NCBI GenBank assembly: GCA_902787365.1
Contig: CADAGC010000013.1
Span: 2,893-66,892 of the forward strand
DNA: 64,000 bases
DNA from: an uncultured Ruminococcus sp.
Lineage (GTDB): Bacteria; Bacillota; Clostridia; Oscillospirales; Ruminococcaceae
Direction of reading: 5' to 3'
The notes beneath the pieces were generated by a model. The model worked only from the letters and a program-made list of their open reading frames with translations, had not been told where the DNA came from and made no database searches. Shown in pieces: positions 1,502 through 54,474 of this stretch (positions are counted from its first letter, which is position 1; every line of letters starts with the position of its first letter). Both the position numbers and the translations under genes were made by a program.

Positions 1502-1528
1502 AGCCGTTCCTTCGGGGGCGGCTTTGTT
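1502..1528 (+). terminator. rho-independent terminator candidate after carB
   Basis: GC-rich hairpin AGCCGTTCC-TTCG-GGGGCGGCT followed by TTGTT. A second hairpin ATCGCCC-TTGC-GGGCGAT lies at 1552-1569. Confidence 0.55.
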
Positions 1529-1720
1529 AGTTAACAGTTAACTGTTGAGGTATCGCCCTTGCGGGCGATTATTGGGCTTTTGAGTGCGGCGGCATATCTT
1601 TCTCTAAGTCTATGGTAACACGTTTTATCAAATTTTGCAATCGGCGGATAAAACAAAATTTCGATAATTCGATATGCAACAAAACGACAGACTGACTAAG
1701 CCTTTTTTCTTCGATTTGAA

Positions 1721-2053: not shown

Positions 2054-4078
2054 GTGAATCTAATGGGCAAGAACAAGGACAATAACGGCAGACCCTTTGA
2101 GATACCACGCCCCGAATTCCCCAAGCGTGCGGTAATCACAGGCGGTATGCCTTACGGTAATAAAGAGCTGCATTTCGGCCACGTCGGCGGTATGCTCACC
2201 TTTGCTGACACCTATGCACGTTTCCTGCGTGACAGGATAGGCGAGGAGAATGTTATATTCGTCTCGGGCACAGACTGCTACGGCTCGCCTATAGCAGAGG
2301 GCTGGAGAAAGAAATGCGAGAGCGGCGAGTTTGAGGGCACGCTTGAAGAGTTCGTGCAAAGAAACCACGAAAAGCAGAAAGCCACACTTGACGCCTACGG
2401 CATAAGCCCGAATCTTTTCGGCGCATCGGGTCTGGGCAGAACTAAGGAAGTTCACGCCAAAGTAACCGAGCGCTTTATACGCTCGCTTTACGAAAAGGGT
2501 CAGCTTGAAAGAATAACCACAATGCAGTTCTTTGACGAGAAAGCAGGGGTGTTCTTAAACGGCAGGCAGGTAGTGGGCAAGTGCCCTGTTGAGGGGTGCA
2601 ATTCCGAGAAAGGCTATGCTGACGAGTGCGACTTAGGCCACCAGTATATGCCCGAAAACCTGATAGACCCCGTGAGCACACTCACAGGCGAAAAGCCCTC
2701 GATGAAGCCCGTAACAAACTGGTATTTCAAGCTTCCCGAATACGAGGGCAAGATGAAAGACTGGGTAGAGGAGCTCAAAAAGCGCAAGGACATACGCCCT
2801 GTTGTGTGGAAGACGATAGACGAATTCTTAAAAGCGCCCGTGATCTACATAAAGCGTGAGTTTGAGGAGAAATACCTTGCAATAAAGGACAAGCTGCCTG
2901 CTCACGAGTATCTGGAGGAGCCGAAGAAGCCCTCATTCACCATACAGTTTGAGAAATTAGCCGACAGCGACGAGGCGCACCGCATACTCACAAACGAGGG
3001 TATCAGGTGCAGAACGGGCAAGACGCTCGTGCCGTTCAGGCTCACAGGCAACATCGAGTGGGGCGTGCCCGCACCGACTTTAGAGGACGAGGAGCCGCTT
3101 ACAGTATGGGTATGGCCTGAGTCGCTCTGGGCGCCTATATCCTTCACGCAGGCGTATTTAGAGAGCAAGGGTGCAGCCGAGGACGAGTGGAAGAAATACT
3201 GGTGCAGCAAGGACGCACAGGTGATACAGTTCATCGGGCAGGATAACATATACTTCTACGGCATAGCCGAGCCTGCAATGTGGATGGCACAGCAGGCAGC
3301 AGCCGACAAGAGCGCACAGCCCGAAGAGGGAGAATTACAGCTGCCGATAATCTGCGCTAACCACCACATACTCTTCCTTGACAAGAAAGCTTCAAGCTCA
3401 GGCTCTGTAAAGCCGCCCATGGCTGACGAGCTGCTTGATTACTACACACCCGAGCAGTTGAGAATGCACTGGCTGGGCTTAGGTCTTGGTCAGCGCTCGG
3501 TAAGCTTTATGCCCAAGCCCATGAACCCCGACGCAAAGCCCGAAGACGCCGACCCTGTTGTAAAGGACGGCCTGCTTTTATCAAACGTTTACAACAGAAT
3601 GATAAGAACGGCGTTCTACACCAACCAGAAGCGTTTTGGCAGCAAGCTGCCCGAGGTAAGCCCGAGCGAGCAGGTGCTTGCAGAGGGCAAAAAGGCGGTG
3701 CTTGATTTCGAGCGCCATATGTCGAGGTTTGCGTTCCACCAGTGTACCTATGTGCTTGACAGCTACATAAGAAATGGCAGCAAGTACATGGCAAAGGCGA
3801 TAAAAGACCCCGACGAGATGTCTGACGACGAGCTTGTGCAGGCTTTGGCTGACCTTTTCTACATGATAAGGATAGCTGCAATACTGCTCCACCCGCTCGC
3901 ACCTTTCGGCACGGAAAAGCTGCGTGAATACCTACAGCTTGATGAGCGCATATGGAGCTGGGAGACGGTGTTTGAGCCGCTGAATTTCTTTGCCGCTGAG
4001 GGTCACGAGCTTAAGTTCCTGCCCCCGAGGACGGATTTCTTTACAAGGCATGAGAGCCAGTTCGGTGAAAATGCGTAA
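2054..4078 (+). CDS. metG: methionine--tRNA ligase
   Basis: MPYGNKELHFGHVGG (PYxNGxLHxGH class-I signature) and Zn-knuckle CPVEGCNSEKGYADECDLGH. A KMSKS-like region (DKKASSSGS) follows. Start may be ATG 2063 rather than GTG 2054. Confidence 0.85.
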   Translation: MNLMGKNKDNNGRPFEIPRPEFPKRAVITGGMPYGNKELHFGHVGGMLTFADTYARFLRDRIGEENVIFVSGTDCYGSPIAEGWRKKCESGEFEGTLEEFVQRNHEKQKATLDAYGISPNLFGASGLGRTKEVHAKVTERFIRSLYEKGQLERITTMQFFDEKAGVFLNGRQVVGKCPVEGCNSEKGYADECDLGHQYMPENLIDPVSTLTGEKPSMKPVTNWYFKLPEYEGKMKDWVEELKKRKDIRPVVWKTIDEFLKAPVIYIKREFEEKYLAIKDKLPAHEYLEEPKKPSFTIQFEKLADSDEAHRILTNEGIRCRTGKTLVPFRLTGNIEWGVPAPTLEDEEPLTVWVWPESLWAPISFTQAYLESKGAAEDEWKKYWCSKDAQVIQFIGQDNIYFYGIAEPAMWMAQQAAADKSAQPEEGELQLPIICANHHILFLDKKASSSGSVKPPMADELLDYYTPEQLRMHWLGLGLGQRSVSFMPKPMNPDAKPEDADPVVKDGLLLSNVYNRMIRTAFYTNQKRFGSKLPEVSPSEQVLAEGKKAVLDFERHMSRFAFHQCTYVLDSYIRNGSKYMAKAIKDPDEMSDDELVQALADLFYMIRIAAILLHPLAPFGTEKLREYLQLDERIWSWETVFEPLNFFAAEGHELKFLPPRTDFFTRHESQFGENA

Positions 4079-4240
4079 GCATTTTCACAATTCATAATGA
4101 AGGTGTGCGGCTTACGCCGCATTATCATCAATTAGCAAAACAACACCCCCGAAGTCATCAAGACCTCGGGGGCTATTTTTTAGATCCGTCCGCCGCAGGC
4201 GGACACCATAATTATGCATTATGCATTATGAATTATGCAT
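4079..4240. repeat. mosaic hairpin element, copy A (ATGCATAA-octamer family)
   Basis: Degenerate left end (aattcataatgaagg). Hairpins: TGCGGC-ttac-GCCGCA (4106-4121), CCCCCGA...TCGGGGG (4145-4171) and GTCCGCC-gca-GGCGGAC (4188-4204). Right end is ccataattatgcattatgcattatgaattatgcat (4206-4240). The same modules occur at 11265-11452. Confidence 0.85.
4145..4181 (+). terminator. rho-independent terminator of metG (inside repeat copy A)
   Basis: Stem CCCCCGA / TCGGGGG followed by CTATTTTTT. Confidence 0.7.
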
Positions 4241-4375
4241 TTACCTGTGGCATTTGCCGCAGGTATCGCATCCGCAGCCACAGCCTCCTGAACGTTTTGC
4301 CTTGACAGTATGTCTTACAGCAAGAAAGACGCAAACTGCGATTATCAGAATGAGTATTATATCAACAGGATTCAT
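4241..4375 (-). CDS. FeoB-associated Cys-rich membrane protein
   Basis: MNPVDIILILIIAVCVFLAVRHTVKAKRSGGCGCGCDTCGKCHR: one TM helix plus a CGCGCxxCxxC tail. GGAGGG SD; sits directly downstream of feoB. The tracked ORF start (4426) is upstream of the SD-supported ATG 4375. Confidence 0.8.
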   Translation of the reverse strand: MNPVDIILILIIAVCVFLAVRHTVKAKRSGGCGCGCDTCGKCHR

Positions 4376-6790: not shown

Positions 6791-6930
6791 CCGCACAGGG
6801 GGAAAGTTAACACTCTTTTTACAATACAATGCACAATTATGGTATCGCCTGCGCCGATATATGGCCATTCGGCCTGTTAGGAAAGTGTTTTTGATTATTA
6901 GTATTTATTCTTTTTCTGGCAAACTTTTAA

Positions 6931-7040
6931 AATCCGTCCGCCGCAAGGCCAACGTTTTGCACAGCAAAACTTGCGATTTATCCGCTTGCGGATAAATCAA
7001 GACACCATAATTATGCATTATGAATTATGCATTGTGCATT
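6931..7040. repeat. mosaic hairpin element, copy B (partial)
   Basis: aatccgtccgccgca module. Hairpins GTTTTGC-aca-GCAAAAC (6954-6970) and GATTTATCCGC-tt-GCGGATAAATC (6975-6998). Octamer end ccataattatgcattatgaattatgcattgtgcatt (7005-7040). Its reverse complement is embedded in copy D. Confidence 0.85.
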
Positions 7041-7058
7041 GCCTGATCGTGCATTGAT

Positions 7059-10196: not shown

Positions 10197-10239
10197 ATTA
10201 CAAAGACCTTTCACCGCATTATAAAAGAATGCATATAAT

Positions 10240-10312
10240 ACAGTGAACAGACGGCAGCGAATGTGCTGCGCAGTCGGGCCTGACGGCAGCAGACAGACAT
10301 CTGCGGGACAGC
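10240..10312 (+). promoter_or_regulatory. candidate NiCo (czcD motif) riboswitch aptamer
   Basis: ACAGTGAA...GGCAGCgaatgtGCTGCGCAG...GGCAGCAGACAG...CTGCGGGACAGC. These blocks match my recollection of the czcD-motif consensus. It sits in the 5' leader of a CDF (CzcD-type) exporter, its classical context. Confidence 0.55.
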
Positions 10313-10345
10313 TTACCAAAAAACTGTTCCGTGGGTGTTTTTTTA
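10304..10345 (+). terminator. riboswitch expression-platform terminator candidate
   Basis: CGGGACAG (sharing the aptamer 3' strand) pairs with CTGTTCCG, followed by TGGGTGTTTTTTT. Confidence 0.5.
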
Positions 10346-10358
10346 TGGAGTTGATATT

Positions 10359-11270
10359 ATGGATAATACAGATATACAGATAAAAAAGCCTGACAGCGGG
10401 CAGGCTGTGGCTATGCGTGTATCGGTAGTGAGCATAGCGGTAAACCTTGCTTTGTCGGTCATAAAGCTGATAGCAGGCCTTGTGGCAAGGTCGGGGGCTA
10501 TGGTGTCTGACGCTGTTCACTCGGCATCTGATGTATTCAGCACGCTTGTGGTGATAGTAGGCGTAAGGCTTGCAGGCAAGCAGCCCGACAAGGAGCACCC
10601 CTACGGCCACGAGCGAATGGAGTGCGTGGCGTCTGTTATCCTTGCGGTGGTGCTGGCGGCAACGGGCGCAGGCATCGGCATGAGCGGCATTGAAAAGATA
10701 GCCTCGCCCGACAAGTACGACCTCGCCGTGCCGGGAGTGCTGGCACTCATAGCGGCGGTCGTGTCGGTGATAGTCAAGGAAGCGATGTTCCACTACACCA
10801 GGCGGGCAGCAAGGCAGATAAACTCTGGCGCTCTTATGGCTGATGCGTGGCATCACAGGTCTGATGCATTATCGTCAGTCGGCTCGTTTGCGGGCATACT
10901 GGGCGCAAGAATGGGCTTTCCTATCCTTGACCCTTTAGCAAGCGTTATAATCTGCGTATTTATCGAAAAAGCGGCAGTCGAGATTTTTATGGACGCTGTG
11001 AACAAGATGATAGACAAAGCCTGCCCCGAGGAGACTGTCGAGCAGATGAGAGAGGTCATTCTCGGCACAGAGGGCGTGCTTGGGATAGACGAGTTGAAGA
11101 CACGACTTTTCGGCTCGAAGATATACGTCGAGGTAGAGATTCTCATGGACGCCGCCAAGACCCTCGTTGAAGCCCACGACACCGCCGAGGCCGTCCACGA
11201 CGCCATTGAGGGGGCTTTCCCAGATGTGAAGCATTGTATGGTACACGTAAACCCAAATATCAAGGCATAA
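10359..11270 (+). CDS. cation diffusion facilitator family transporter
   Basis: HSASDVFSTLVVIVGVRLAGKQPDKEHPYGHERMECVA and DAWHHRSDALSS metal-site motifs, plus a C-terminal cytoplasmic dimerisation domain. GGAG SD 8 nt before ATG 10359. Confidence 0.85.
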   Translation: MDNTDIQIKKPDSGQAVAMRVSVVSIAVNLALSVIKLIAGLVARSGAMVSDAVHSASDVFSTLVVIVGVRLAGKQPDKEHPYGHERMECVASVILAVVLAATGAGIGMSGIEKIASPDKYDLAVPGVLALIAAVVSVIVKEAMFHYTRRAARQINSGALMADAWHHRSDALSSVGSFAGILGARMGFPILDPLASVIICVFIEKAAVEIFMDAVNKMIDKACPEETVEQMREVILGTEGVLGIDELKTRLFGSKIYVEVEILMDAAKTLVEAHDTAEAVHDAIEGAFPDVKHCMVHVNPNIKA

Positions 11271-11452
11271 TTCATAATGCATAATGCATAATGCATAATT
11301 GAGGTATGCGGCTTCGCCGCATGAATTTAAAAAGTTCACCCCGAGAGATTATCCCTCGGGGTGCTTTGTCGTTACGGCGCAGCCGTTTTATAATCCGTCC
11401 TGCGCAGCAGGACACATTAATTATGCATTATGAATTATGCATTATGCATTAT
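11265..11452. repeat. mosaic hairpin element, copy C (most complete; inverted octamer ends)
   Basis: Left end gcataattcataatgcataatgcataatgcataatt (11265-11300). Right end attaattatgcattatgaattatgcattatgcattat (11416-11452) is its inverted counterpart. Internal hairpins at 11307-11321, 11337-11363, ~11372-11387 and 11397-11413. Confidence 0.9.
11337..11363. terminator. hairpin CACCCCGAG...CTCGGGGTG, likely terminator for the minus-strand pmbA-tldD unit
   Basis: 9-bp GC-rich stem. On the minus strand it is followed by AACTTTTTAAATTC. Confidence 0.5.
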
Positions 11453-12660
11453 TTACTGTACTGCATTCTCATAAGTATCTGCTTATCGTTGAACACGGGG
11501 TCATCGGAGCCGACGCCGATGAAGTCTTTTCCGAACATATCATACATACTGCCCTTGAATGTAAACTCGGGGAGCCTGCCTATGAAGCGCTCTCCGTCGC
11601 AGAGCATAGCGGTCTGCACGGGGGTTACATACTCGCCCTTGTCGTTGAAGCCGCCGCCTGCGGCAACTATCGGCACGACAGTCAGCCTGCCGTCAAGCAG
11701 CTCCTTTACCGTCTTGTCGCTGCGCTGAATGCGGAAATTGGTATAGCCGTTGTAGGGCACATCTTTCATATTAAGCCCTGCACTTCCCGTGTGGGGGGCG
11801 CCGTATTTGTCGGCGGTGTGCTTGTCGGCATAGCCCGAGAGAATGACGCCGTTTTGTATGTAGATATGTCTGTCGCCCTCGCAGGTCACGCCCTCGCCGT
11901 CAAAGAACGGGGCAAACCATGTTTCCTTATCCGTCACATCATGCGATAGGGTGAAGCTGTCGGCAAAGACTTTCTGCCCTATCTTGTCCTTTAAAAGCGA
12001 GGTGCCCAGGGCGATATTCTCGGCGTCGAGCGACTCATTAAGCTTGCTTAAGCACCAGTAATACTGGGTCTGTATTATAAGCTCTTCGGGCAGGTCTACC
12101 GTATTGGTGAAGTTAGTCAGATAGTTATCCGCCATATCGGTGAATTTCTTCATCTGAAAATCTCTCTGCCCGATACTGAACCAGCCGTCTGAGATATCCT
12201 TGCTGTCCTTGTGCTTGAACTCTATATCGACACTCAGCACCGTGTCGGTGTTTGAAACATCAAGGCCGCAGGTGTTTGTCATGGCCCTGACCGAGCAGTT
12301 GGCGTTCACCGAGCCGCTGAATATAAAATCGGGGAAGTGTGTCTTAAGATAGTCAAGCGCTTCACGGGCTATTTCCATAAGTTCCTTGTCGGTGTAGCAC
12401 CTCTCTGTCTTGTCACGGTGGCGTGTGCCTGTCTCTAAGGTGAATTTGTAGGGGCGCTTAAGTGCAAGGTTATCCTGCGCCTTTTTGTAGCCCTCTTCGT
12501 CATCTATGCTGCCCTGAACATACTGTATGCCCGCATACTCGCCGTCATACACACGGTATGAGCGGTCTGTGCGGCTGTCTTTATTGAAAGCCTTTATCTT
12601 TGTTTCTTCTATCTGCACCTCACTGTAGTCATATTTCGAGGTGATAAGTTCTCTTTCCAT
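11449..12660 (-). CDS. TldD/PmbA family protein (PmbA/TldE-like partner)
   Basis: Size, position next to tldD, and a C-terminal GGGFN / GxxxxxV pattern of the PmbA_TldD fold. Lacks HExxxH. Confidence 0.7.
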   Translation of the reverse strand: MERELITSKYDYSEVQIEETKIKAFNKDSRTDRSYRVYDGEYAGIQYVQGSIDDEEGYKKAQDNLALKRPYKFTLETGTRHRDKTERCYTDKELMEIAREALDYLKTHFPDFIFSGSVNANCSVRAMTNTCGLDVSNTDTVLSVDIEFKHKDSKDISDGWFSIGQRDFQMKKFTDMADNYLTNFTNTVDLPEELIIQTQYYWCLSKLNESLDAENIALGTSLLKDKIGQKVFADSFTLSHDVTDKETWFAPFFDGEGVTCEGDRHIYIQNGVILSGYADKHTADKYGAPHTGSAGLNMKDVPYNGYTNFRIQRSDKTVKELLDGRLTVVPIVAAGGGFNDKGEYVTPVQTAMLCDGERFIGRLPEFTFKGSMYDMFGKDFIGVGSDDPVFNDKQILMRMQYSK

Positions 12661-29346: not shown

Positions 29347-29381
29347 GTCAGAGGTAAGACGTCAGATATAAGAGATAAGAT

Positions 29382-46909: not shown

Positions 46910-49900
46910 ATGAAAAAAGGCTTTTTGCGCAAGGCGCTTGCCCTTGCCGTGGCTGCGACCCTTGCAGTCGGCGCAGTCCCCGCACAGCCGATAGCCGACT
47001 TTTTTGACGGGCTGACGCTGTCGGCTAAGGCGGCTGACCCTGTCAAGTATATTGATGAGGACGGTGTCGAGCAGACCATTACGGAGTATACTGTGCTTAC
47101 GAGCAGTAATGACGGTCATCAACTTACCGGTGGCAAGTATGTTGTTATGGACGATGTGGAGGTAAGCGGGTCGCTTTATTGTACAGGCGATGTAGAGCTT
47201 ATTGTTTGTGACGGCAAGACGCTGACTATCACGAATACAAGCGGTTGCAGTATATTCAATCTTTCCAATTCTGTCAAAATATTCGGCCAGAGTGACAACA
47301 GCGGTAAAATAATTGCAAACGCCTCAAATGAGACGTTCTTCGTGGACAGTTATAATCAGTATGGTGCCGTGGTAGAAGCTGTTTCTACAGATAGCACGGG
47401 CATCTTTTCTTGTGGAGATGTGCTGATAAAAGGCGGCAGCCTTGATGCCAAAGGCAATTGCAGTGGCATATATGCATTTAACAATGCTATCTTTGCAGGC
47501 GGTGTTGTTAATGCTGTATCTGAATCTGAGAACTTTTTTGGAGTTAATGCAGATACTATAACCAATGACATAAGCACTATCACCCTCTCCGGCGGTATTA
47601 TCAAGTCTAACAGCTACAGCAAAGACCTCACGATCGCCGAGGGTAAAACCTACGCCACTCCCGACGGCGGCGAGTATACAAGCACTAGCGGCATAAGCGC
47701 AGCCGCTGCCGAAAATACCCTCCTCGCCCCCAAGAACGCAGGCTACGTTTTCTACATAAACGAAGCAGGCGAGGACGATATGCTGCAGCCCGGGCAGTAT
47801 ACCGAGCTTAAAAGCAGCATGGGCGGTCAGACTCTTGACGGCGGCACGTATGTTGTTAAGAACGATGTGACGATAAGCGGGCAGCTTAACTTCACAGGCG
47901 ACACCAAGCTTGTTATCATGGACGGCAAGAAGCTGACGGTGACGAATGAGGAAGGCGTGGGCATATTAATCCAAAAAGACCCTAATGATCTTTTTAGTGA
48001 TAAAGACCTTTCCATATACGGTCAGAAGAACAGCACAGGCAAGCTGATTGTTGAGTCAACTGATCACTCGGTATCCATAAAAAACTACAAGCAATACGGC
48101 TGTGATGTGTCGCTGCATGCAACTGGTTATTATCGTAAAGGCCTGTGTGCAAGCGGCAATGTGGTCATGTCGGGCGGAAGACTTAATACTGTCTCCGAGA
48201 AAGATTCGGGCATATATGCCGATAATGTGATACACTTTAACAAGGGCATTGTGATTGCTGATAATAAATCAAGCGGCGCAGATATATTGAACTTAAATAA
48301 AGTATTCTTTAACGGCGCTGTAGTCACGGCTGATAAGTACTATGATTATGGTGATAATATTCTCGTATTGTCAAAGGACTACACCAACGGCACATCAAAC
48401 TTTGTCGCAGGCACACAGCTCACCGAGACTGACACCAACGGCAAAACGCTGATGCCGCAAGGCACAGTCCCCTACATAGACGAGAACGGCGATGAGGCGT
48501 ATTTGATGCCGGGGGAGTATACAGAGCTGACACAGGCTTCGTTTGAGGACGATTACAAAACACTCGAAGCTGGAACATACTATGTAAGTGAAAATATCAC
48601 GTTTGGTTATCAGATTGTATTAAATGGTGATGCTACGTTTATTATCAAAGACGATGTAGAACTTAATATCGACTCGATTTGTCCTATATTTGCATATGGA
48701 AAAACCTTAACAATTACCGGACAAAGTAAAGGAACTGGAAAATTAAGTGTTAACGGATATGACGGTATAGAGTGCAAGAACTATATCCAAAATGGTGCTA
48801 CAGTAGTTGCTATAGGTAATAGTAGCGGCTTTGGATTAAATGCAGATAATGATATAACACTAAACGGTGGTATGCTTGAAGTACAAAATGGCATACAGTC
48901 CAAAGAAGGCACTATCACCCTTACTGGCGGCACGGTCAAAGCAGATAGCTACAATATAGTCCCCACGATCGCCGCAGGCAAGACATACGTTGACGAGCAG
49001 GGCAATGAGTACACCTCCGAGACCGAGAACTTAGCCACGGCTGTCGCAGGCAAATGGATAGCCGAAAAGTCCGCAAGCGTGCCCTATATCGGCGCAGACG
49101 GTAAGACTAAGTACGCTTTGGCAGGGCAGTATACAGAGCTTAGTGATGTGCTGGTGGAGAAGAACATTAACAATGGTTACTATGGAATTCCCGGCGGCAT
49201 ATATGTTATCAGCGGAAGTATTGATAAAAGCGAAATGGAGATATTTTTCAAGAACGCTGACACTACTCTGATAATCAAAGACAGTGCCGAGCTAAAAGCA
49301 AGATACATAAACGCTTATGACTTAACAGTTTTCGGGCAGAGTGGCAATACGGGAAAACTGATAGTGAACAATACCTATAATAACGGTAGTTTGGACGGCT
49401 TGGACTGTGGTCAATACATACAGTATGGCGCGGATGTTTCACTTTATTCAACTGAAGGCATCGGCATATGTGCGTTTGAAAATATAATATTAAATGGCGG
49501 CAGGTTCGAAGCAAATAGTGCCGCTGAGAATTATAATGGCATAAGTGTCTATGACGGTCGCACTATCACTCTTGCAGGCGGCACAGTCAAAGCAAGCAAA
49601 TACAAAATAGCCCCAACAATCGCCGAGGGCGTGACTTACCTCGACGAGGACGGCAACATATACACTAACACTACAGGCATAACCGCCGACGCAGCCGCAG
49701 GCAAGCTGCTCACCCCCGCCTATACCATAACCTATGTCCTCGGCGGCGGCACAAATGCGGCAGCTAACCCCGCAGCCTATACTCCCGGCACGGCAGTCGC
49801 ACTCAAAAACCCCACAAGAACGGGCTATACCTTCACCGGCTGGACTATGAACAGCACGGCGGTGACATCTATACCTGCCACAGCCACGGGCGATATCACA

Positions 49901-51292
49901 CTCACAGCCGGCTGGTCGGTAAATTCCTACAAGGTGACGCTCAACACCAACGGCGGCACAATAAACAAGGGCAACGTGACCCGCTACACCTACGGCACAG
50001 CCAAGACACTGCCTACAGACGTAACAAGAGAGGGCTACACCTTTGAGGGCTGGTATGCAAACAAAAACCTCACAGGCAACCCTGTCAAGAAGATAACCGC
50101 AGGCAGCACGGGCAGCAAGACCTACTACGCCAAGTGGTCGGCTATCGACTGCACTATCACCTACAACCTTAACGGCGGCAGCAACAACGAAGCAAACCCC
50201 GACACCTACAACGCAGACAGCGAGGACATCACTCTTGCAGCCCCCGAGCGTGAGGGTTACACATTCACAGGCTGGACGTTTGAGGGTCAGACCGAGCCGA
50301 CCAAGGACGTGACAATAGCGCAGGGCAGCACGGGCGACAGAGAGTTCACCGCTAACTGGTCGGCTATCGACTGCACTATCAGCTATAAGCTGAACGGCGG
50401 CAGCAACAACGAAGCTAACCCCGACACCTACAACGCAGACAGCGAGGACATCACTCTTGCAGCCCCCGAGCGTGAGGGTTATGCTTTCACGGGCTGGACG
50501 TTTGAGGGGCAGACCGAGCCGACCAAGGACGTGACAATTGCGCAGGGCAGCACAGGCGACAGAGAGTTCACCGCTAACTGGCAGATAAACACCTACAAGG
50601 TGACTTTCGCAGAGGGTGCAGCAGACGAGCAGACAGTTGAGCACGGCAAGGCCGCCGCTCAGCCCGCCGACCCCAAAAAGGAAGGCTATATATTCATGGG
50701 CTGGCTGCTTGGCGACAAGGCGTATGACTTTGAGACACCCGTGACGGCTGATATAACTATCACACCCGACTGGGAGGAGATAGTCTACACCCTCGTTCCC
50801 GCCGTAGCACCTACTTGTGAAGACGACGGAAACGACGAGTACTACACAGGCTCGGACGGCAAGTTCTATGTCAAGCAGGAGGGCAAGTACACAGAGACTA
50901 CCCTTGCCAAGGTAACAAAGGGCGCATACGGCCACAAGCTTGTCAGGGTGGATTTTGAGGACTCGACCTTTGAATCAGAGGGCAATATCGAGCATTATAA
51001 ATGCGAGCGCTGCGGCAGGCTCTTTGCTGACAATAAGGCTAAGGACGAGCTGACGCAGGAGGATGTCGTTATCCCCAGGAAGGTGAAGAAAAAGATCCTT
51101 GGTGATGCTGACGGCGACGGCAAATTCACAGTAAGAGACGTAGCTCTCGTTAAGCAGTATCTTGCAAACTGGAAGGTAACTATCGACCTTGATAACTCCG
51201 ATATCAACGGCGACGGCAAGGTGACAGTCAAAGACCTTGTCTACATGAAGCAAAAGCTTGCAGGGTGGAATACCGAATACTTTGACAGATAA
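46910..51292 (+). CDS. secreted modular protein: 4 x ~230-aa unknown repeats, 5 Listeria-Bacteroides (Flg_new) repeats, Cys-containing module, type-I dockerin
   Basis: Signal peptide MKKGFLRKALALAVAATLAVGAVPA. Flg_new units (YTITYVLGGGT...GYTFTGWT). Dockerin loops DADGDGKFTVRDVALVKQYL and DINGDGKVTVKDLVYMKQKL. Confidence 0.85.
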   Translation: MKKGFLRKALALAVAATLAVGAVPAQPIADFFDGLTLSAKAADPVKYIDEDGVEQTITEYTVLTSSNDGHQLTGGKYVVMDDVEVSGSLYCTGDVELIVCDGKTLTITNTSGCSIFNLSNSVKIFGQSDNSGKIIANASNETFFVDSYNQYGAVVEAVSTDSTGIFSCGDVLIKGGSLDAKGNCSGIYAFNNAIFAGGVVNAVSESENFFGVNADTITNDISTITLSGGIIKSNSYSKDLTIAEGKTYATPDGGEYTSTSGISAAAAENTLLAPKNAGYVFYINEAGEDDMLQPGQYTELKSSMGGQTLDGGTYVVKNDVTISGQLNFTGDTKLVIMDGKKLTVTNEEGVGILIQKDPNDLFSDKDLSIYGQKNSTGKLIVESTDHSVSIKNYKQYGCDVSLHATGYYRKGLCASGNVVMSGGRLNTVSEKDSGIYADNVIHFNKGIVIADNKSSGADILNLNKVFFNGAVVTADKYYDYGDNILVLSKDYTNGTSNFVAGTQLTETDTNGKTLMPQGTVPYIDENGDEAYLMPGEYTELTQASFEDDYKTLEAGTYYVSENITFGYQIVLNGDATFIIKDDVELNIDSICPIFAYGKTLTITGQSKGTGKLSVNGYDGIECKNYIQNGATVVAIGNSSGFGLNADNDITLNGGMLEVQNGIQSKEGTITLTGGTVKADSYNIVPTIAAGKTYVDEQGNEYTSETENLATAVAGKWIAEKSASVPYIGADGKTKYALAGQYTELSDVLVEKNINNGYYGIPGGIYVISGSIDKSEMEIFFKNADTTLIIKDSAELKARYINAYDLTVFGQSGNTGKLIVNNTYNNGSLDGLDCGQYIQYGADVSLYSTEGIGICAFENIILNGGRFEANSAAENYNGISVYDGRTITLAGGTVKASKYKIAPTIAEGVTYLDEDGNIYTNTTGITADAAAGKLLTPAYTITYVLGGGTNAAANPAAYTPGTAVALKNPTRTGYTFTGWTMNSTAVTSIPATATGDITLTAGWSVNSYKVTLNTNGGTINKGNVTRYTYGTAKTLPTDVTREGYTFEGWYANKNLTGNPVKKITAGSTGSKTYYAKWSAIDCTITYNLNGGSNNEANPDTYNADSEDITLAAPEREGYTFTGWTFEGQTEPTKDVTIAQGSTGDREFTANWSAIDCTISYKLNGGSNNEANPDTYNADSEDITLAAPEREGYAFTGWTFEGQTEPTKDVTIAQGSTGDREFTANWQINTYKVTFAEGAADEQTVEHGKAAAQPADPKKEGYIFMGWLLGDKAYDFETPVTADITITPDWEEIVYTLVPAVAPTCEDDGNDEYYTGSDGKFYVKQEGKYTETTLAKVTKGAYGHKLVRVDFEDSTFESEGNIEHYKCERCGRLFADNKAKDELTQEDVVIPRKVKKKILGDADGDGKFTVRDVALVKQYLANWKVTIDLDNSDINGDGKVTVKDLVYMKQKLAGWNTEYFDR
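50135..50578 (+). repeat. tandem duplication, 2 x 222 bp (~93% identical), inside the dockerin-protein gene
   Basis: Units start at 50135 and 50357 (tggtcggctatcgactgcactatc...). Each encodes one 74-aa Flg_new repeat. Confidence 0.9.
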
Positions 51293-51414: not shown

Positions 51415-52608
51415 ATGAAACTGAAAAAGACACTTGCGATACTTGCAGCGGCTGTAATGAGCCTGTCGGTATTTACTGGCTGCGGAGATAAGAACGACAG
51501 CTCGTCCGTTTCGGCAGGGGAGAGCAGCGGCGAATCCTCCTCACAGGGCGGCAAAGCATCTGCTAACCTTTCAAGAAGCGGCGAGGTAAGAGATATAAAG
51601 GCGTCAGACCTTGTAGCTGAAATGACCGCAGGCTGGAATCTCGGCAACTCGCTTGATGTGTTCGACGGCGAGGGAGTATCTACTGAGACGGGCTGGGGAA
51701 ACCCCAAGACCACGCAGGAGATGATCGACGGCGTGCGTGACAAGGGCTTTGATGTCATTCGCATACCCGTGACCTGGGGCAACCATGTTGACGAGAACTA
51801 TACTATCGACACCGATTGGCTCGACAGGGTGCAGGAGGTAGTCAACTACGCTTATGACGACGGGCTTTATGTTATCATAAACTCCCACCACGAGGAGGAG
51901 TGGCGCATACCCGACAACGAGCATATAGATGAAGTCGATAAGCAATCGACGGCTATCTGGAAACAGGTGGCAGAGCGCTTTAAGGACTACGGCGACCACC
52001 TTATCTTTGAGGGGCTGAACGAGCCGAGAGTAAAAGGCTCGCCGCAGGAGTGGAACGGCGGCACGGAAGAGGGCAGGCACTGTGTTGACAGGCTAAACAA
52101 GAGCTTTGTTGATACCGTGCGTGCGACAGGCGGCAACAATGAGAAAAGGCTTCTGCTGCTGACCACCTACGCTTCGTCCTGCCTTGCAACTGCGGTCAAG
52201 GACGTGGCTATCATCGAAGACGAGCACATAGGCTTTTCTATACACGCATACACCCCCTATGCCTTTACCTACGCACCGGGGGAGAGCTGGGAGCTTTTTG
52301 AGTGGGACGGCACCCACGACGGCGAGATACAGGACGTTATGCTAAGGCTCAAAAAGACATTCGTTGACAACGGCATACCTGTTATCATAACCGAGTACGG
52401 CGCAGTCAACAAGAGCGGCAACGATGCCGAGGTGGCAAAGTGGGCGACCTCCTACATAGGCTTTGCCAAGAGCGCAGGCATACCATGCGTGTGGTGGGAT
52501 AACGGCTACTATATAAGCGGCAACGAGCTTTTCGGCATATATGACCGCAGCCATTGTGACTGGTATACCGATACGGTCGCTGATGCGCTGATAGAGGCAG
52601 CTAAATAA
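51415..52608 (+). CDS. glycoside hydrolase family 5 endoglucanase (lipoprotein-type signal, no dockerin)
   Basis: LSVFTGC lipobox, GWNLGNSLD, RIPVTW, FEGLNEP (acid/base Glu), ITEYG (nucleophile Glu). Confidence 0.85.
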   Translation: MKLKKTLAILAAAVMSLSVFTGCGDKNDSSSVSAGESSGESSSQGGKASANLSRSGEVRDIKASDLVAEMTAGWNLGNSLDVFDGEGVSTETGWGNPKTTQEMIDGVRDKGFDVIRIPVTWGNHVDENYTIDTDWLDRVQEVVNYAYDDGLYVIINSHHEEEWRIPDNEHIDEVDKQSTAIWKQVAERFKDYGDHLIFEGLNEPRVKGSPQEWNGGTEEGRHCVDRLNKSFVDTVRATGGNNEKRLLLLTTYASSCLATAVKDVAIIEDEHIGFSIHAYTPYAFTYAPGESWELFEWDGTHDGEIQDVMLRLKKTFVDNGIPVIITEYGAVNKSGNDAEVAKWATSYIGFAKSAGIPCVWWDNGYYISGNELFGIYDRSHCDWYTDTVADALIEAAK

Positions 52609-52848
52609 TGCATAATTCATAATGCATAAGGCATAATTGAGGTGTCTTGATTTATCCGCAAGCGGATACTGATTTATCCGTAAACGGATAAATCGCAAGT
52701 TTTGCTGTGCAAAACGTTGGCCTTACGGCGGACGGATACGGCGGACGGATCAAAAAACAACACCCCGAGAATCTGATTTCCTCGGGGTGTTTGCTTTGAC
52801 ATATTTTAATACGCCCGAAGGGCGCACCTTCATTATGCATTATGCATT
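52604..52848. repeat. mosaic hairpin element, copy D (expanded; contains reverse complement of copy B)
   Basis: Left end aataatgcataattcataatgcataaggcataatt (52604-52638). Duplicated GATTTATCCG hairpins. Tandem acggcggacggat x2 (52725-52750). Hairpin CACCCCGAG...CTCGGGGTG (52761-52789). Right end cattatgcattatgcatt (52831-52848). Confidence 0.9.
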
Positions 52849-54474
52849 GAGCGAAATGCTCCTTACCTTTTCTCTTAACGGCAGAACGAATGGCGGTGAT
52901 ACCGACAGCTCGTCTATGCCCATTCTGATAAACTGCTCGGTGAGTGTGAGATCTGCTGCAAGTTCGCCGCAGATGCCTATCCAGGCGCCGTTTGCGTGGG
53001 CGTTTTTTGCCGACATCTCGATAAGGCGGAGTACAGCTTCGTGGTGAGTATCGGCAAATGCTTCAAGCTTTGCGTTCTGCCTGTCGCAGGCAAGGGTGTA
53101 CTGGGTCAGGTCATTCGTGCCTACGCTGAAAAAGTCCACCAGCGGTGCGAGCCTGTCGCTGATAACAGCCGCCGCAGGGGTCTCTATCATTATGCCTACC
53201 TCGGTGTTCTCACCTATGCGTATTCCGTCGGCAGTAAGCTCTTTTTTGACCTCATCGCACATCGCAAGGCACTTTTCCACCTCGGAAACACTCGTTATCA
53301 TCGGGAACATTATTCCGAGGTTGCCGTAAGCGGAAGCACGATAGAGCGCACGCAGCTGTGTGCGGAATATCTCAGGGCGTGTCAGACATATGCGTATAGC
53401 CCTGAAACCAAGTGCAGGGTTGTCTTCCTTTTCAAGCCCGAAATAGTCTATCTGCTTGTCAGCGCCAATGTCGAGGGTGCGGATTATCACCTTTTTGCCC
53501 GCCATGCTTTCGAGCACCTTTTTGTATGCCTGGAACTGCTGCTCCTCGGTGGGGTAGTCCTCGCTTTCGAGATAGAGGAACTCGCTCCTGAAAAGCCCTA
53601 TGCCGCCCGCATCATTTGCAAGCACCGCACCTATGCCGCCTACGCCGCCGATGTTTGCATAGATGTTTATTTTCCTGCCGTCAAGGGTGATGTTTTCCTT
53701 GCCCTTTAGCTCCTGCAAAAGCTGCTTTTTGCGTGAGTCTTCTGCCTGCTTTTCTTCAAAGCGCTTTACAGTTTCCTCATCGGGTGAGATGTATACTTCG
53801 CCTGTATGGCCGTCAACTATCATTAACTCACCGTCGCTCACAGCGCTTAAAAACTCCTCGCCAAGCCCGATAACGGCGGGAATGTTCATATTCCTCGCAA
53901 GAATCGCCGTGTGGGAATTTGATGAGCCGAAAGCCGTGACGAAAGCCAGCACCCTGTCCTTGTCAAGCGATACGGTCTCGCTTGGTGCAAGGTCATCAGC
54001 GCATACTATCATCATTTCGTCGGTGCTGTTTTCGCTGCTGCCGCTGTCTGTCAGGCAGGCGATAAGGCGGTTTGATATGTCCTTGACATCAGCAGCACGA
54101 GCCTGCATATATGCATCGTCCATGCTCGCAAACATCTCGGCAAAGTTATCCGAGGTGACTGCCACGGCATACTCTGCGTTGACCTTCTGTGTCTCAATTA
54201 TGCTCACGATAGACTCGTTGTAGTCTTCATCATCAAGCATCATTATGTGTATCTCAAAGATCTCGGCATTGGCTTCGCCGACTTCTTTCAGCGCCTTGTC
54301 GTGAATGGCTGTCAGTTGTTCGACTGCTTTTTGCTTTGCGGCCTCAATGCGCTCTATCTCTTTTTTCGGGTCATCGACAGATACTCGCCTTACCTCGGCT
54401 GCCTGCCTTTTAAAGAGCGATACTTTTCCTATCGCTATCGCCCCGTAAACTCCCTTGCCCTTGAATACAGTCAT
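52840..54474 (-). CDS. ptsI: phosphoenolpyruvate-protein phosphotransferase (PTS Enzyme I)
   Basis: GSSNSHTAILAR (active-site His), GGIGLFRSEFLY, and a C-terminal PEP-utilising TIM barrel with SVGTNDLTQY. Confidence 0.95.
   Translation of the reverse strand: MTVFKGKGVYGAIAIGKVSLFKRQAAEVRRVSVDDPKKEIERIEAAKQKAVEQLTAIHDKALKEVGEANAEIFEIHIMMLDDEDYNESIVSIIETQKVNAEYAVAVTSDNFAEMFASMDDAYMQARAADVKDISNRLIACLTDSGSSENSTDEMMIVCADDLAPSETVSLDKDRVLAFVTAFGSSNSHTAILARNMNIPAVIGLGEEFLSAVSDGELMIVDGHTGEVYISPDEETVKRFEEKQAEDSRKKQLLQELKGKENITLDGRKINIYANIGGVGGIGAVLANDAGGIGLFRSEFLYLESEDYPTEEQQFQAYKKVLESMAGKKVIIRTLDIGADKQIDYFGLEKEDNPALGFRAIRICLTRPEIFRTQLRALYRASAYGNLGIMFPMITSVSEVEKCLAMCDEVKKELTADGIRIGENTEVGIMIETPAAAVISDRLAPLVDFFSVGTNDLTQYTLACDRQNAKLEAFADTHHEAVLRLIEMSAKNAHANGAWIGICGELAADLTLTEQFIRMGIDELSVSPPFVLPLREKVRSISLNA

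Follow-up and report, generated by a model that had tools for sequence, protein, structure and literature searches.

A heptamer-armed hairpin doublet at gene ends of a rumen Ruminococcus, possibly a REPIN/BIME-like mosaic repeat

INTRODUCTION

What kind of sequence fills a 188-bp spacer between two converging genes, folds into several hairpins between inverted arms, and recurs at other intergenic sites of the same genome? We addressed this question for positions 11265–11452 of a 64,000-nucleotide (nt) stretch of contig CADAGC010000013.1 (assembly GCA_902787365.1) from an uncultured Ruminococcus sp.; this whole stretch is called the window below. An initial annotation had described the interval as one structured element resembling repetitive extragenic palindromic (REP) sequences, bacterial interspersed mosaic elements (BIMEs) or miniature inverted-repeat transposable elements (MITEs). 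According to this description, the element had inverted ends built from an octamer, ATGCATAA, four hairpin modules between them and further copies at three loci. We compared the interval with copies in the window and in other genomes. Our tentative answer is that it belongs to a family of dispersed mosaic repeats whose hairpin units face each other as do those of REPINs, the inverted REP doublets.

RESULTS

Structure of the focal interval

The whole interval proved to be a single structured element. Its folding energies were –87 and –92 kcal/mol, strand by strand, corresponding to z scores of –9.4 and –10.6 relative to dinucleotide shuffles. The left arm (11265–11299, plus strand) consists of the five tandem heptamers GCATAAT TCATAAT GCATAAT GCATAAT GCATAAT, for which Tandem Repeats Finder reported period 7, 5.0 copies and 92% matches. 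The right arm (11420–11454, minus strand) is the inverted array ATTATGC ATTATGA ATTATGC ATTATGC ATTAT(TT). Its positions 11420–11452 are the inverted left arm, with 94% complementarity across 34 nt that can be extended to 67 nt at 79%, which confirms the inverted right end that had been proposed. The octamer did not hold: period 7 was returned for every arm in the window, with the unit KCAYAAT, and ATGCATAA is accordingly one heptamer unit plus one extra base.

Between the arms lie four hairpins, as annotated. The outer two belong to units recognized by R1, a covariance model of the building block described in the next section. The left unit (11294–11343, plus strand; 47.3 bits, E = 4.9e-10) comprises the last heptamer, a foot TGAGGTAT (11300–11307, plus strand, placed by the model and the alignment), hairpin A (ATGCGGC-TTC-GCCGCAT, 11306–11322, plus strand) and an inner flank GAATTTAAAAAG. 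The right unit (11375–11425, minus strand; 50.4 bits, E = 8e-11) contains hairpin D (GTCCTGC-GCA-GCAGGAC, 11397–11413, minus strand), a foot that reads TAATGTGT as reverse complement, and an inner flank GGATTATAAAAC. Hairpin B (CACCCCGAGAGAT-T-ATCCCTCGGGGTG, 11337–11363) has a stem like that of an intrinsic terminator. Judged by its tail AACTTTTTAA, it is a predicted terminator for the minus-strand gene, and with the tail CTTTGTCGTT it would probably serve the plus-strand gene as well. Hairpin C (ACGGC-GCA-GCCGT, 11374–11386, plus strand) is followed by TTTATAAT and forms a weak terminator-like site. Within the elements, a terminator scan flagged only central hairpins, namely 11363–11337 (minus), 4173–4145 (minus) and 11374–11386 (plus); the unit hairpins A and D were not flagged.

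A covarying hairpin block arranged in convergent pairs

The building block was derived by comparing the focal copy with copies from other genomes. It consists, in order, of 2–5 tandem heptamers, a foot T-NN-GGT(G/A)T, a GC hairpin of 5–7 bp (GTC-N2-4-loop-N2-4-GAC) and an A/T-rich inner flank GGATTTwAAA. The final GT of the foot is already part of the stem, and the foot of the opposite strand is AATCC. We evaluated the stem in 33 aligned, non-identical copies, using 500 shuffles and slid controls. Stem cells were paired in 90.3% of cases compared with 68.8% in shuffles, and double changes numbered 42 compared with 11.3. The covariation score was 0.525, compared with 0.144 for shuffled alignments; none of the 500 shuffles reached it, and slid controls gave at most 0.125. 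These values argue that the stem is maintained by compensatory change and that the hairpin is under selection. The stems sort into discrete subfamilies that are common to several species.

The loops point to the strand that folds. Loops of the GNA or GNRA type were found in 23 of 36 cases on the strand that reads the hairpin and then ATTATGC, and in 1 of 36 on the opposite strand. In DNA, GNA triloops with a closing C:G pair are unusually stable, and the same is true of GNRA loops in RNA. This asymmetry implies that the selected fold is the one formed by the ATTATGC strand. Single-stranded DNA could adopt that fold, and so could an RNA whose transcription runs outward through the arm; in the RNA it would resemble a hairpin with a U-rich tail.

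R1 detected eight significant copies in the window, and all eight units were paired, forming four convergent plus/minus pairs: 4093–4143 with 4166–4216 (locus 1), 6832–6880 with 6974–7015 (locus 2), 11294–11343 with 11375–11425 (locus 3, the focal interval) and 52632–52673 with 52791–52837 (locus 4). The recurrence that had been noted at three further loci was thus upheld in modules and in unit pairs, with the exception of the bounds of locus 2, which is really the interval ~6822–7041. A search of relatives, which the initial annotation had suggested, gave 62 R1 copies in 96 other loci, among which there were 15 close plus/minus pairs and no close minus/plus pair. Many of these pairs are minimal doublets, 17–27 nt apart, whose hairpins are split only by a palindromic centre GGATTT/AAAATCC; the window copies are doublets of this kind with additional hairpins in the centre.

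Chance similarity of low-complexity sequence does not account for this recurrence. The array motif has 25 matches in the window compared with 0.84 expected, and 24 of the 25 fall in the four loci. Likewise, the modules ATCCGTCCKSCG, TTTATCCG..CGGATA and CCCCGAG..CTCGGGG are confined to the four loci within the window, far above chance.

Dispersal and absence at orthologous gene ends

Contigs identical to the window stretch come from cattle-rumen metagenomes, and the closest genome is the metagenome-assembled genome (MAG) RGIG7024, whose PtsI is 97% identical. The hairpin block is also present in Ruminococcus flavefaciens Y1 and SAb67, in Ruminococcus sp. JL13D9, in several RGIG MAGs and in Oscillospiraceae such as Faecousia. 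Copies in different genomes occupy non-orthologous sites. For example, positions 11288–11372 of the window share 37 identical nt and the following terminator with locus L134 of the sister MAG RGIG7024, where the same module carries 1.5 heptamer units compared with 5 in the window. Similarly, a 76-nt block (hairpins C and D plus array) is common to the window and locus L260 at 92% identity, again at non-orthologous sites. The genes that adjoin units elsewhere are unrelated housekeeping genes.

At orthologous gene ends of relatives, the element was absent. Relatives of ptsI at 95% nucleotide identity lack it; homology ends at the last codon and other DNA follows. Relatives of the gene similar to methionyl-tRNA synthetase (MetRS) next to locus 1 (91% and 87% protein identity) carry either a plain terminator or, at a distance of 190 nt downstream, a doublet whose arms are different. 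In the element-free ptsI and MetRS relatives the downstream DNA differs too, and only the gene-side boundary of the insertion can therefore be placed. A plain terminator lies downstream of pmbA relatives as well; these are just 70–72% identical and not syntenic, which makes an empty-site comparison impossible at pmbA.

Strains of the window species vary at locus 4: a 13-nt repeat, TACGGCGGACGGA, occurs twice in the window and once in contig L177, and contig L178 shows a further 23-nt deletion inside the locus, with identical flanks in both cases. Four other contigs of this species (L005, L006, L179 and L181) terminate within heptamer arrays or adjacent hairpins; in other words, the repeat fragments short-read assemblies.

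Arrays abut or supply stop codons

Six of the eight arrays in the window touch or include the stop codon of a neighbouring gene (4076–4078, 4241–4243, 11268–11270, 11449–11451, 52606–52608 and 52840–52842). At the focal interval, the stop TAA of the left-hand gene, a cation diffusion facilitator (CDF)-type exporter, sits in the first unit of the left arm (11268–11270), and that of pmbA (11449–11451; TTA, the reverse complement of TAA) sits in the last, degenerate unit of the right arm. The C-terminus of the pmbA product (YSK before the stop) is the same as in homologues, the array beginning at the stop. The end of ptsI, by comparison, reads SISLNA, whereas relatives have SISLK or SISLT, and its terminal AAT GCA TAA is array sequence; the tail of the MetRS-like gene is likewise replaced, ending in QFGENA where relatives have acidic tails. 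Since 7 leaves a remainder of 1 when divided by 3, an array of TAA-bearing heptamers, read inward, places a stop in all three frames.

We further analyzed arrays in other genomes. Among 120 loci, a same-sense long open reading frame (ORF) was ended by 94 of 165 arrays, compared with 24 of 163 in the control orientation, and 106 of 170 arrays (62%) followed a same-sense gene end. Arrays made of other units had the same bias (28/61 vs 8/61). Offsets of –1, +6, +13 and +20 between array and stop cover 42 arrays, and the stop codon is often supplied by the array itself. Of 33 pairs, 23 had more A than T in the left arm and more T than A in the right, with arms A-rich inward and T-rich outward.

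Heptamer arrays with other units and without the hairpin

The same foot and hairpin core occurs with other arms: GTAACAG heptamers on one side in locus L284, GAATAAA-type heptamers on both sides in L304 and L305, and GTTAACW arms at window positions 1522–1538. The arms do not form a fixed terminal sequence. In L304/L305 (3390–3500) the core forms a minimal doublet with arms A-rich inward and U-rich outward, resembling a symmetric bidirectional terminator.

Conversely, KCAYAAT arrays occur without the hairpin in Bacteroidales of the gut, in further phyla and in phage contigs. A scan for three perfect units matched at least 120 loci. The carriers among the matches listed are Bacteroidales (Prevotella, Muribaculaceae and others), Clostridia (Ruminococcus and others), Victivallales, Melainabacteria and a Proteobacteria MAG, almost all of them from gut or rumen. 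Such arrays also lie between co-directional phage genes in 24 IMG/VR contigs, and orthologous phage junctions differ in unit number (4 vs 6, 5 vs 8). An assignment of viral contigs of 4.5–7 kb to Microviridae was dropped; their ORFs resemble tailed-phage fragments. The period itself is over-represented, with 267–333 period-7 arrays in 825 kb of carrier loci and at most 24 for any other period, and more than 100 of these period-7 arrays are built of other units. Control DNA from unrelated taxa contained 9 period-7 arrays in 680 kb, which is not above periods 5 or 6; relative to control DNA, carrier genomes are enriched about ten-fold.

Searches for an enzyme and for known families

No transposase domain was found in 40 ORFs of the window at E ≤ 1e-5, in agreement with the initial annotation. 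No transposase or nuclease family recurred in 92 ORFs adjoining units elsewhere, and clustering of 904 ORFs near arrays gave no recurrent enzyme. No insertion sequence (IS) sharing the ends of the element was found in the window or in ~300 fetched loci. Rfam gave no family at the four loci, either at the gathering threshold or at E ≤ 5, and of the papers searched, none contains GCATAATGCATAAT or its complement.

Two gene families near arrays were considered as linked enzymes, and both were set aside as too few: YhcG/DUF1016 (three genes) and the 23S-rRNA-intervening-sequence protein (two genes). The YhcG/DUF1016 genes encode PDDEXK nucleases and adjoin heptamer arrays at L038 2380–3465, L064 4427–5488 and L119 3297–4358. 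Direct copies of a segment that contains an array bound the gene in L038, and inverted GCTNTGA arrays bound that in L119. The position of these genes beside arrays may be fortuitous or may point to an associated nuclease. In two Prevotella MAGs (L024 5891–6335 and L088 5638–6103), an ORF of 120 aa with inverted KCAYAAT arrays on its two sides belongs to the 23S-rRNA-intervening-sequence family (PF05635, E = 6e-26), an Avd-like four-helix bundle; the arrangement resembles a small cassette with arrays as its borders.

Genomic setting of the four loci

The focal interval is flanked on the left by the CDF-type exporter gene (10335–11270, plus strand; Pfam Cation_efflux/ZT_dimer) and on the right by a pmbA/tldE-type gene (11449–12660, minus strand), identified in the domain search of window ORFs. 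Directly 5′ of the exporter gene, Rfam reported its only match, a NiCo (nickel/cobalt) riboswitch aptamer at 10233–10313 (plus strand; 44.2 bits, above the gathering score), a typical czcD-type arrangement. The left array also includes, within 11271–11299 (plus strand), a sigma-70-like sequence TTCATA-17 nt-CATAAT (9/12) directed into the element, which is a product of the T-variant unit. A promoter role was set aside; the right arm has no such site, and hence it is not general.

Locus 1 (4071–4243) has two arrays, two units and a central terminator. Its decayed left array (GCGTAAG.. TCACAAT TCATAAT, 4073–4098) includes the stop of the MetRS-like gene at 4076–4078; the terminator (4145–4173) lies between the units, and the right array (4211–4241) abuts the stop (4241–4243) of a small Cys-rich, FeoB-associated ORF. 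Locus 2 (6822–7041) lies in a divergent promoter region. Here a decayed left array (ACAATAC AATGCAC AAT) precedes the plus-strand unit, a 75-nt module (6931–7005) is common to locus 4 in inverted form, and the right array (7006–7041) ends 18 nt before the –35 box of a PfkB-kinase gene. Locus 4 (52603–52852) has arrays at both ends. The stop of a cellulase gene (52606–52608) lies inside the left array (52603–52637), which is followed by TTTATCCG-hairpins (52648–52692), the strain-polymorphic 13-nt repeat in two copies (52724–52750) and a terminator (52760–52790). The right array (52832–52852) supplies the end of ptsI with its stop at 52840–52842. Thus, a canonical terminator-like stem with a T-run occupies the centre of three of the four window copies, and the stem family of hairpin B recurs at 4145–4173 and 52760–52790.

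A possible distant relative lies at 1522–1591 (plus strand), where GTTAACA GTTAACT is followed by TGAGGTAT and a hairpin CGCCC-TTGC-GGGCG; R1 matched 1545–1591 weakly (E = 0.19). The surrounding 580-nt intergenic region (1470–2050) is rich in repeats. Besides these heptamers, foot and hairpin (1522–1570), it holds TATCAG hexamers (1748–1792), 11-nt TATGCAAA-type repeats (1788–1853) and GACAGAC/GTCTGTC palindromes, and it may be a graveyard or another branch of the heptamer-hairpin repeat system. A short heptamer-like run, GTCAGAG GTAAGAC GTCAGAT ATAAGAG ATAAGAT (29347–29375), is a further period-7 array close to a stop codon and with TAA in its unit; it lies between the stop of a TrkH gene and the terminator of that gene. 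The gene neighbours in the window include a glycoside hydrolase family 5 (GH5) cellulase and a dockerin protein, and a 222-nt tandem duplication (50128–50581; 2.0 copies, 93% identical) lies within a 1460-aa dockerin/Flg_new-repeat ORF (46910–51292).

DISCUSSION

A repeat that may be copied in trans

The interpretation that we favour, with a probability of roughly 0.45, is that the interval is one copy of a REPIN/BIME-like mosaic repeat that is dispersed in rumen Ruminococcus, is non-autonomous and is copied in trans by an enzyme. It draws on the convergent pairing of units, the covarying stem, the copies at non-orthologous sites, the turnover at gene ends and within locus 4, the lack of an enzyme in cis and the contact of arrays with stop codons. 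As shown above, two blocks face each other, with the arrays as the arms of a long foldback, and other hairpins, the terminators of the flanking genes among them, can occupy the A/T-rich centre. The further steps are inferred. The doublet would be copied, now or in the recent past, in the form of folded single-stranded DNA that reaches new intergenic positions. The copying enzyme would be encoded elsewhere in the genome, as REP-associated tyrosine transposases (RAYTs) are for REPINs. The arms could then lengthen, shorten and diverge through slippage in steps of 7 nt and still retain their complementarity. Copies would survive mainly at gene ends; the inward stops in three frames mean that landing at or in the last codons costs just 0–2 residues. 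Once there, the hairpins and the A-rich (inward) or U-rich (outward) arms would probably aid 3′-end formation or stability and block antisense read-through, a role that we regard as secondary and co-opted.

Several observations weigh against this interpretation. No gene of the HUH-Y1 (RAYT) type was detected in the 40 window ORFs and 92 unit-adjacent ORFs, where a single copy is easily missed. The block alignment does not contain the GT[AG]G foot of canonical REPs. A target-site duplication, which the initial annotation had proposed to look for, was not found: the longest word shared between flanks averaged 3.73 nt compared with 3.69 nt in shuffled pairings, with fuzzy array borders. Its absence fits REP-like elements and proves nothing. 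No clean pair of filled and empty sites with both flanks conserved was present among the ptsI and MetRS relatives, and the arrays were invariant across 4–6 metagenome contigs of the window species, which indicates that they are not hypermutable on that scale. The orientation of the stops coincides with the A/T polarity of the arms in the same 23 of 33 pairs, so that neither can be claimed as the selected property. Finally, the hairpin-free arrays of Bacteroidales and phage contigs lie mostly in sense orientation at co-directional gene junctions, a pattern which suggests that arrays have a life or function of their own.

Alternative explanations

The strongest alternative, although somewhat unlikely in our estimation, is a gene-end RNA element selected by the host, which would stop ribosomes in any frame shortly ahead of the terminator, protect 3′ ends from exonucleases and provide termination or insulation against convergent (antisense) transcription. 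Similar copies would then arise by duplication or recombination followed by selection, with no transposition. The preference of arrays for same-sense gene ends (62%), many of them supplying the stop codon, agrees with such a role, as do the polarity of the arms (23/33), the central terminators in three of four window copies and the phage arrays between co-directional genes. GNA/GNRA loops also favour it, being found on the strand where the hairpin precedes the U-richer array (23/36 vs 1/36), and the outward arm of L304 is a true U-rich run. However, most convergent junctions in the window manage with a plain terminator alone, neither arm of locus 2 comes after a gene, that locus being in a divergent promoter region, and the KCAYAAT tail behind the hairpin is no canonical U-tract and was not flagged by the terminator scan. 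The composite blocks that two species share almost unchanged at non-orthologous loci require a copying process, and orthologous gene ends of close relatives do without the element. The trans-copied repeat and the gene-end RNA element are not mutually exclusive.

A broader proposal, for which we see rather long odds, concerns the arrays themselves. They could be the trace of a horizontally spreading process that writes or copies tandem three-frame-stop heptamers precisely at gene boundaries, across several phyla of gut and rumen bacteria and their phages. Candidates may be a hairpin-guided nuclease or polymerase activity, or arrays serving as junction homology for cassette exchange; the Ruminococcus hairpin doublet would then be one lineage-specific rider.

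Somewhat less probable still is an origin as simple sequence repeats (SSRs), which would arise in place by slippage beside stalling hairpins and be homogenized by gene conversion, with no dedicated mobility. The ten-fold excess of period-7 arrays, with more than 100 different units, would follow from this, and so would the differing unit numbers at orthologous phage junctions (4 vs 6, 5 vs 8) and in the module shared with L134 (1.5 vs 5 units); heptanucleotide repeats are, moreover, treated in the literature as the commonest class of long SSRs (PMC4679880). Slippage leaves unexplained, on the other hand, the identical foot, hairpin and terminator blocks at unrelated loci, the strict convergent pairing of units and the same two variable positions (K1, Y5) across phyla, and mixed orders of G and T units are atypical of simple slippage.

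We consider it very improbable that the element is a classical MITE, that is, a deletion derivative of an IS moved by cut-and-paste through a transposase that binds its terminal inverted repeats. It is small, non-coding, intergenic and present in many copies with inverted ends, as a MITE would be; yet it lacks a target-site duplication (3.73 vs 3.69 nt), ~130 neighbouring ORFs yielded neither a transposase nor an IS with ends of this kind, and the variation of arms between copies of one core argues against a sequence-specific terminal inverted repeat. The least credible explanation is an iteron array for a DNA-binding protein of the ribbon-helix-helix or nucleoid type, or an invertible switch: ATGCAT is palindromic, three units would span two helical turns, and inverted repeats surround a short segment as in invertons, but arms differ between copies of the same core, the inner segment has the same orientation in all 4–6 independent contigs per locus (a small sample), no recombinase was found in window ORFs, and flipping a bidirectional terminator would change nothing. 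A look-alike ATCATAATGCATAA iteron array, upstream of copG-like and parA-like genes on Providencia alcalifaciens plasmid NZ_CP151777.1 (L301 217–290), would likewise favour iterons. It was the sole match in a BLAST search of plasmid and phage records, is probably a partition or operator site, and was rejected as a relative of the present arrays.

Significance

Rumen Ruminococcus and many gut anaerobes apparently contain hundreds of such structured gene-end repeats, although Rfam and the searchable literature both lack them. Short-read assemblies break at these repeats, terminal codons and stops of housekeeping genes are rewritten by them, and they coincide with synteny breakpoints; they probably also shape 3′-end formation and antisense insulation. 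The element joins two unexplained observations, the excess of heptanucleotide repeats and REP-like hairpins, in one anatomy. If arrays were indeed actively written or exchanged across phyla, genomes would be seen to change by a new mechanism.

Comparison with known repeat families

The element resembles both REP/REPIN sequences and heptamer-repeat elements and matches none of them. REPs and REPINs are mobilized by RAYT (TnpA-REP) enzymes of the HUH-Y1 type, and to our knowledge REPINs have not been described in the Clostridia lineage of this host. As in the REP, BIME and REPIN families of Enterobacteria and Pseudomonas (defined in PMC3337134, PMC3116915 and PMC6006769), the unit is a short extragenic GC hairpin with a conserved foot and a high copy number. 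Further likenesses are inverted doublets that can fold in single-stranded DNA, mosaics with other motifs, a position at gene ends, discrete sequence subfamilies, and the lack of a target-site duplication and of an enzyme in cis. REPs are recognized by a GTAG or GTGG tetranucleotide 0–2 nt 5′ of the hairpin foot (PMC6006769), whereas the foot here is GGTRT rather than GT[AG]G, with stems of 5–7 bp; canonical REP membership therefore fails. Unlike described REPs, each unit here also carries an outer arm of tandem heptamers. The initial classification as a REP/BIME- or MITE-type mosaic thus survives for a dispersed non-coding mosaic with REPIN-like inverted doublets, and is lost for a strict MITE or a canonical REP.

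The foldback-type or hairpin MITEs of bacteria are not known to have tandem-heptamer arms. The Correia/NEMIS, ERIC, RUP and BOX elements are also non-coding, structured, intergenic, sometimes co-transcribed and able to affect mRNA 3′ ends. They have fixed terminal inverted repeats, however, and Correia and RUP elements have target duplications and cognate IS families, unlike the element described here.

The element is also a member of the heptanucleotide tandem repeats, a loosely defined class. Cyanobacteria are reported to contain heptanucleotide repeats known as short tandemly repeated repetitive (STRR) sequences, with small dispersed repeats (SDRs) embedded in them. There too, small hairpins with compensatory changes reportedly lie in or beside heptamer arrays in a nested or mosaic manner, with no known enzyme, and SDR hairpins in heptamer arrays are the closest anatomical precedent. 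They differ in phylum and in unit and hairpin sequences, and the present element has inverted arms around a doublet, abutting stops. TAACTGA heptamer repeats are found in marine Beggiatoaceae, Cyanobacteria and some Bacteroidetes (MacGregor 2015, PMC4679880). They share with our arrays an intergenic position, 2–6 or more copies, three-frame stops in one orientation, overlap with stop codons of upstream genes, and one unit across distant phyla with suspected horizontal spread and no known mechanism. However, they are mostly single direct arrays just upstream of start codons, with no inverted pairing or hairpin core reported and a unit other than KCAYAAT. Mrazek, as quoted in the same paper, found heptanucleotide repeats to be the commonest long SSRs; slippage at stalling hairpins is the explanation that Mrazek proposed for their general excess. 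The KCAYAAT unit differs from the described units CCCCAGT, TTGGTCA, CAACAGT and TAACTGA. Compared with these systems, new features here are that a hairpin doublet is combined with inverted heptamer arms, that the unit is KCAYAAT, that the hosts are rumen and gut anaerobes and their phages, and that the arrays precisely abut stop codons and rewrite terminal codons.

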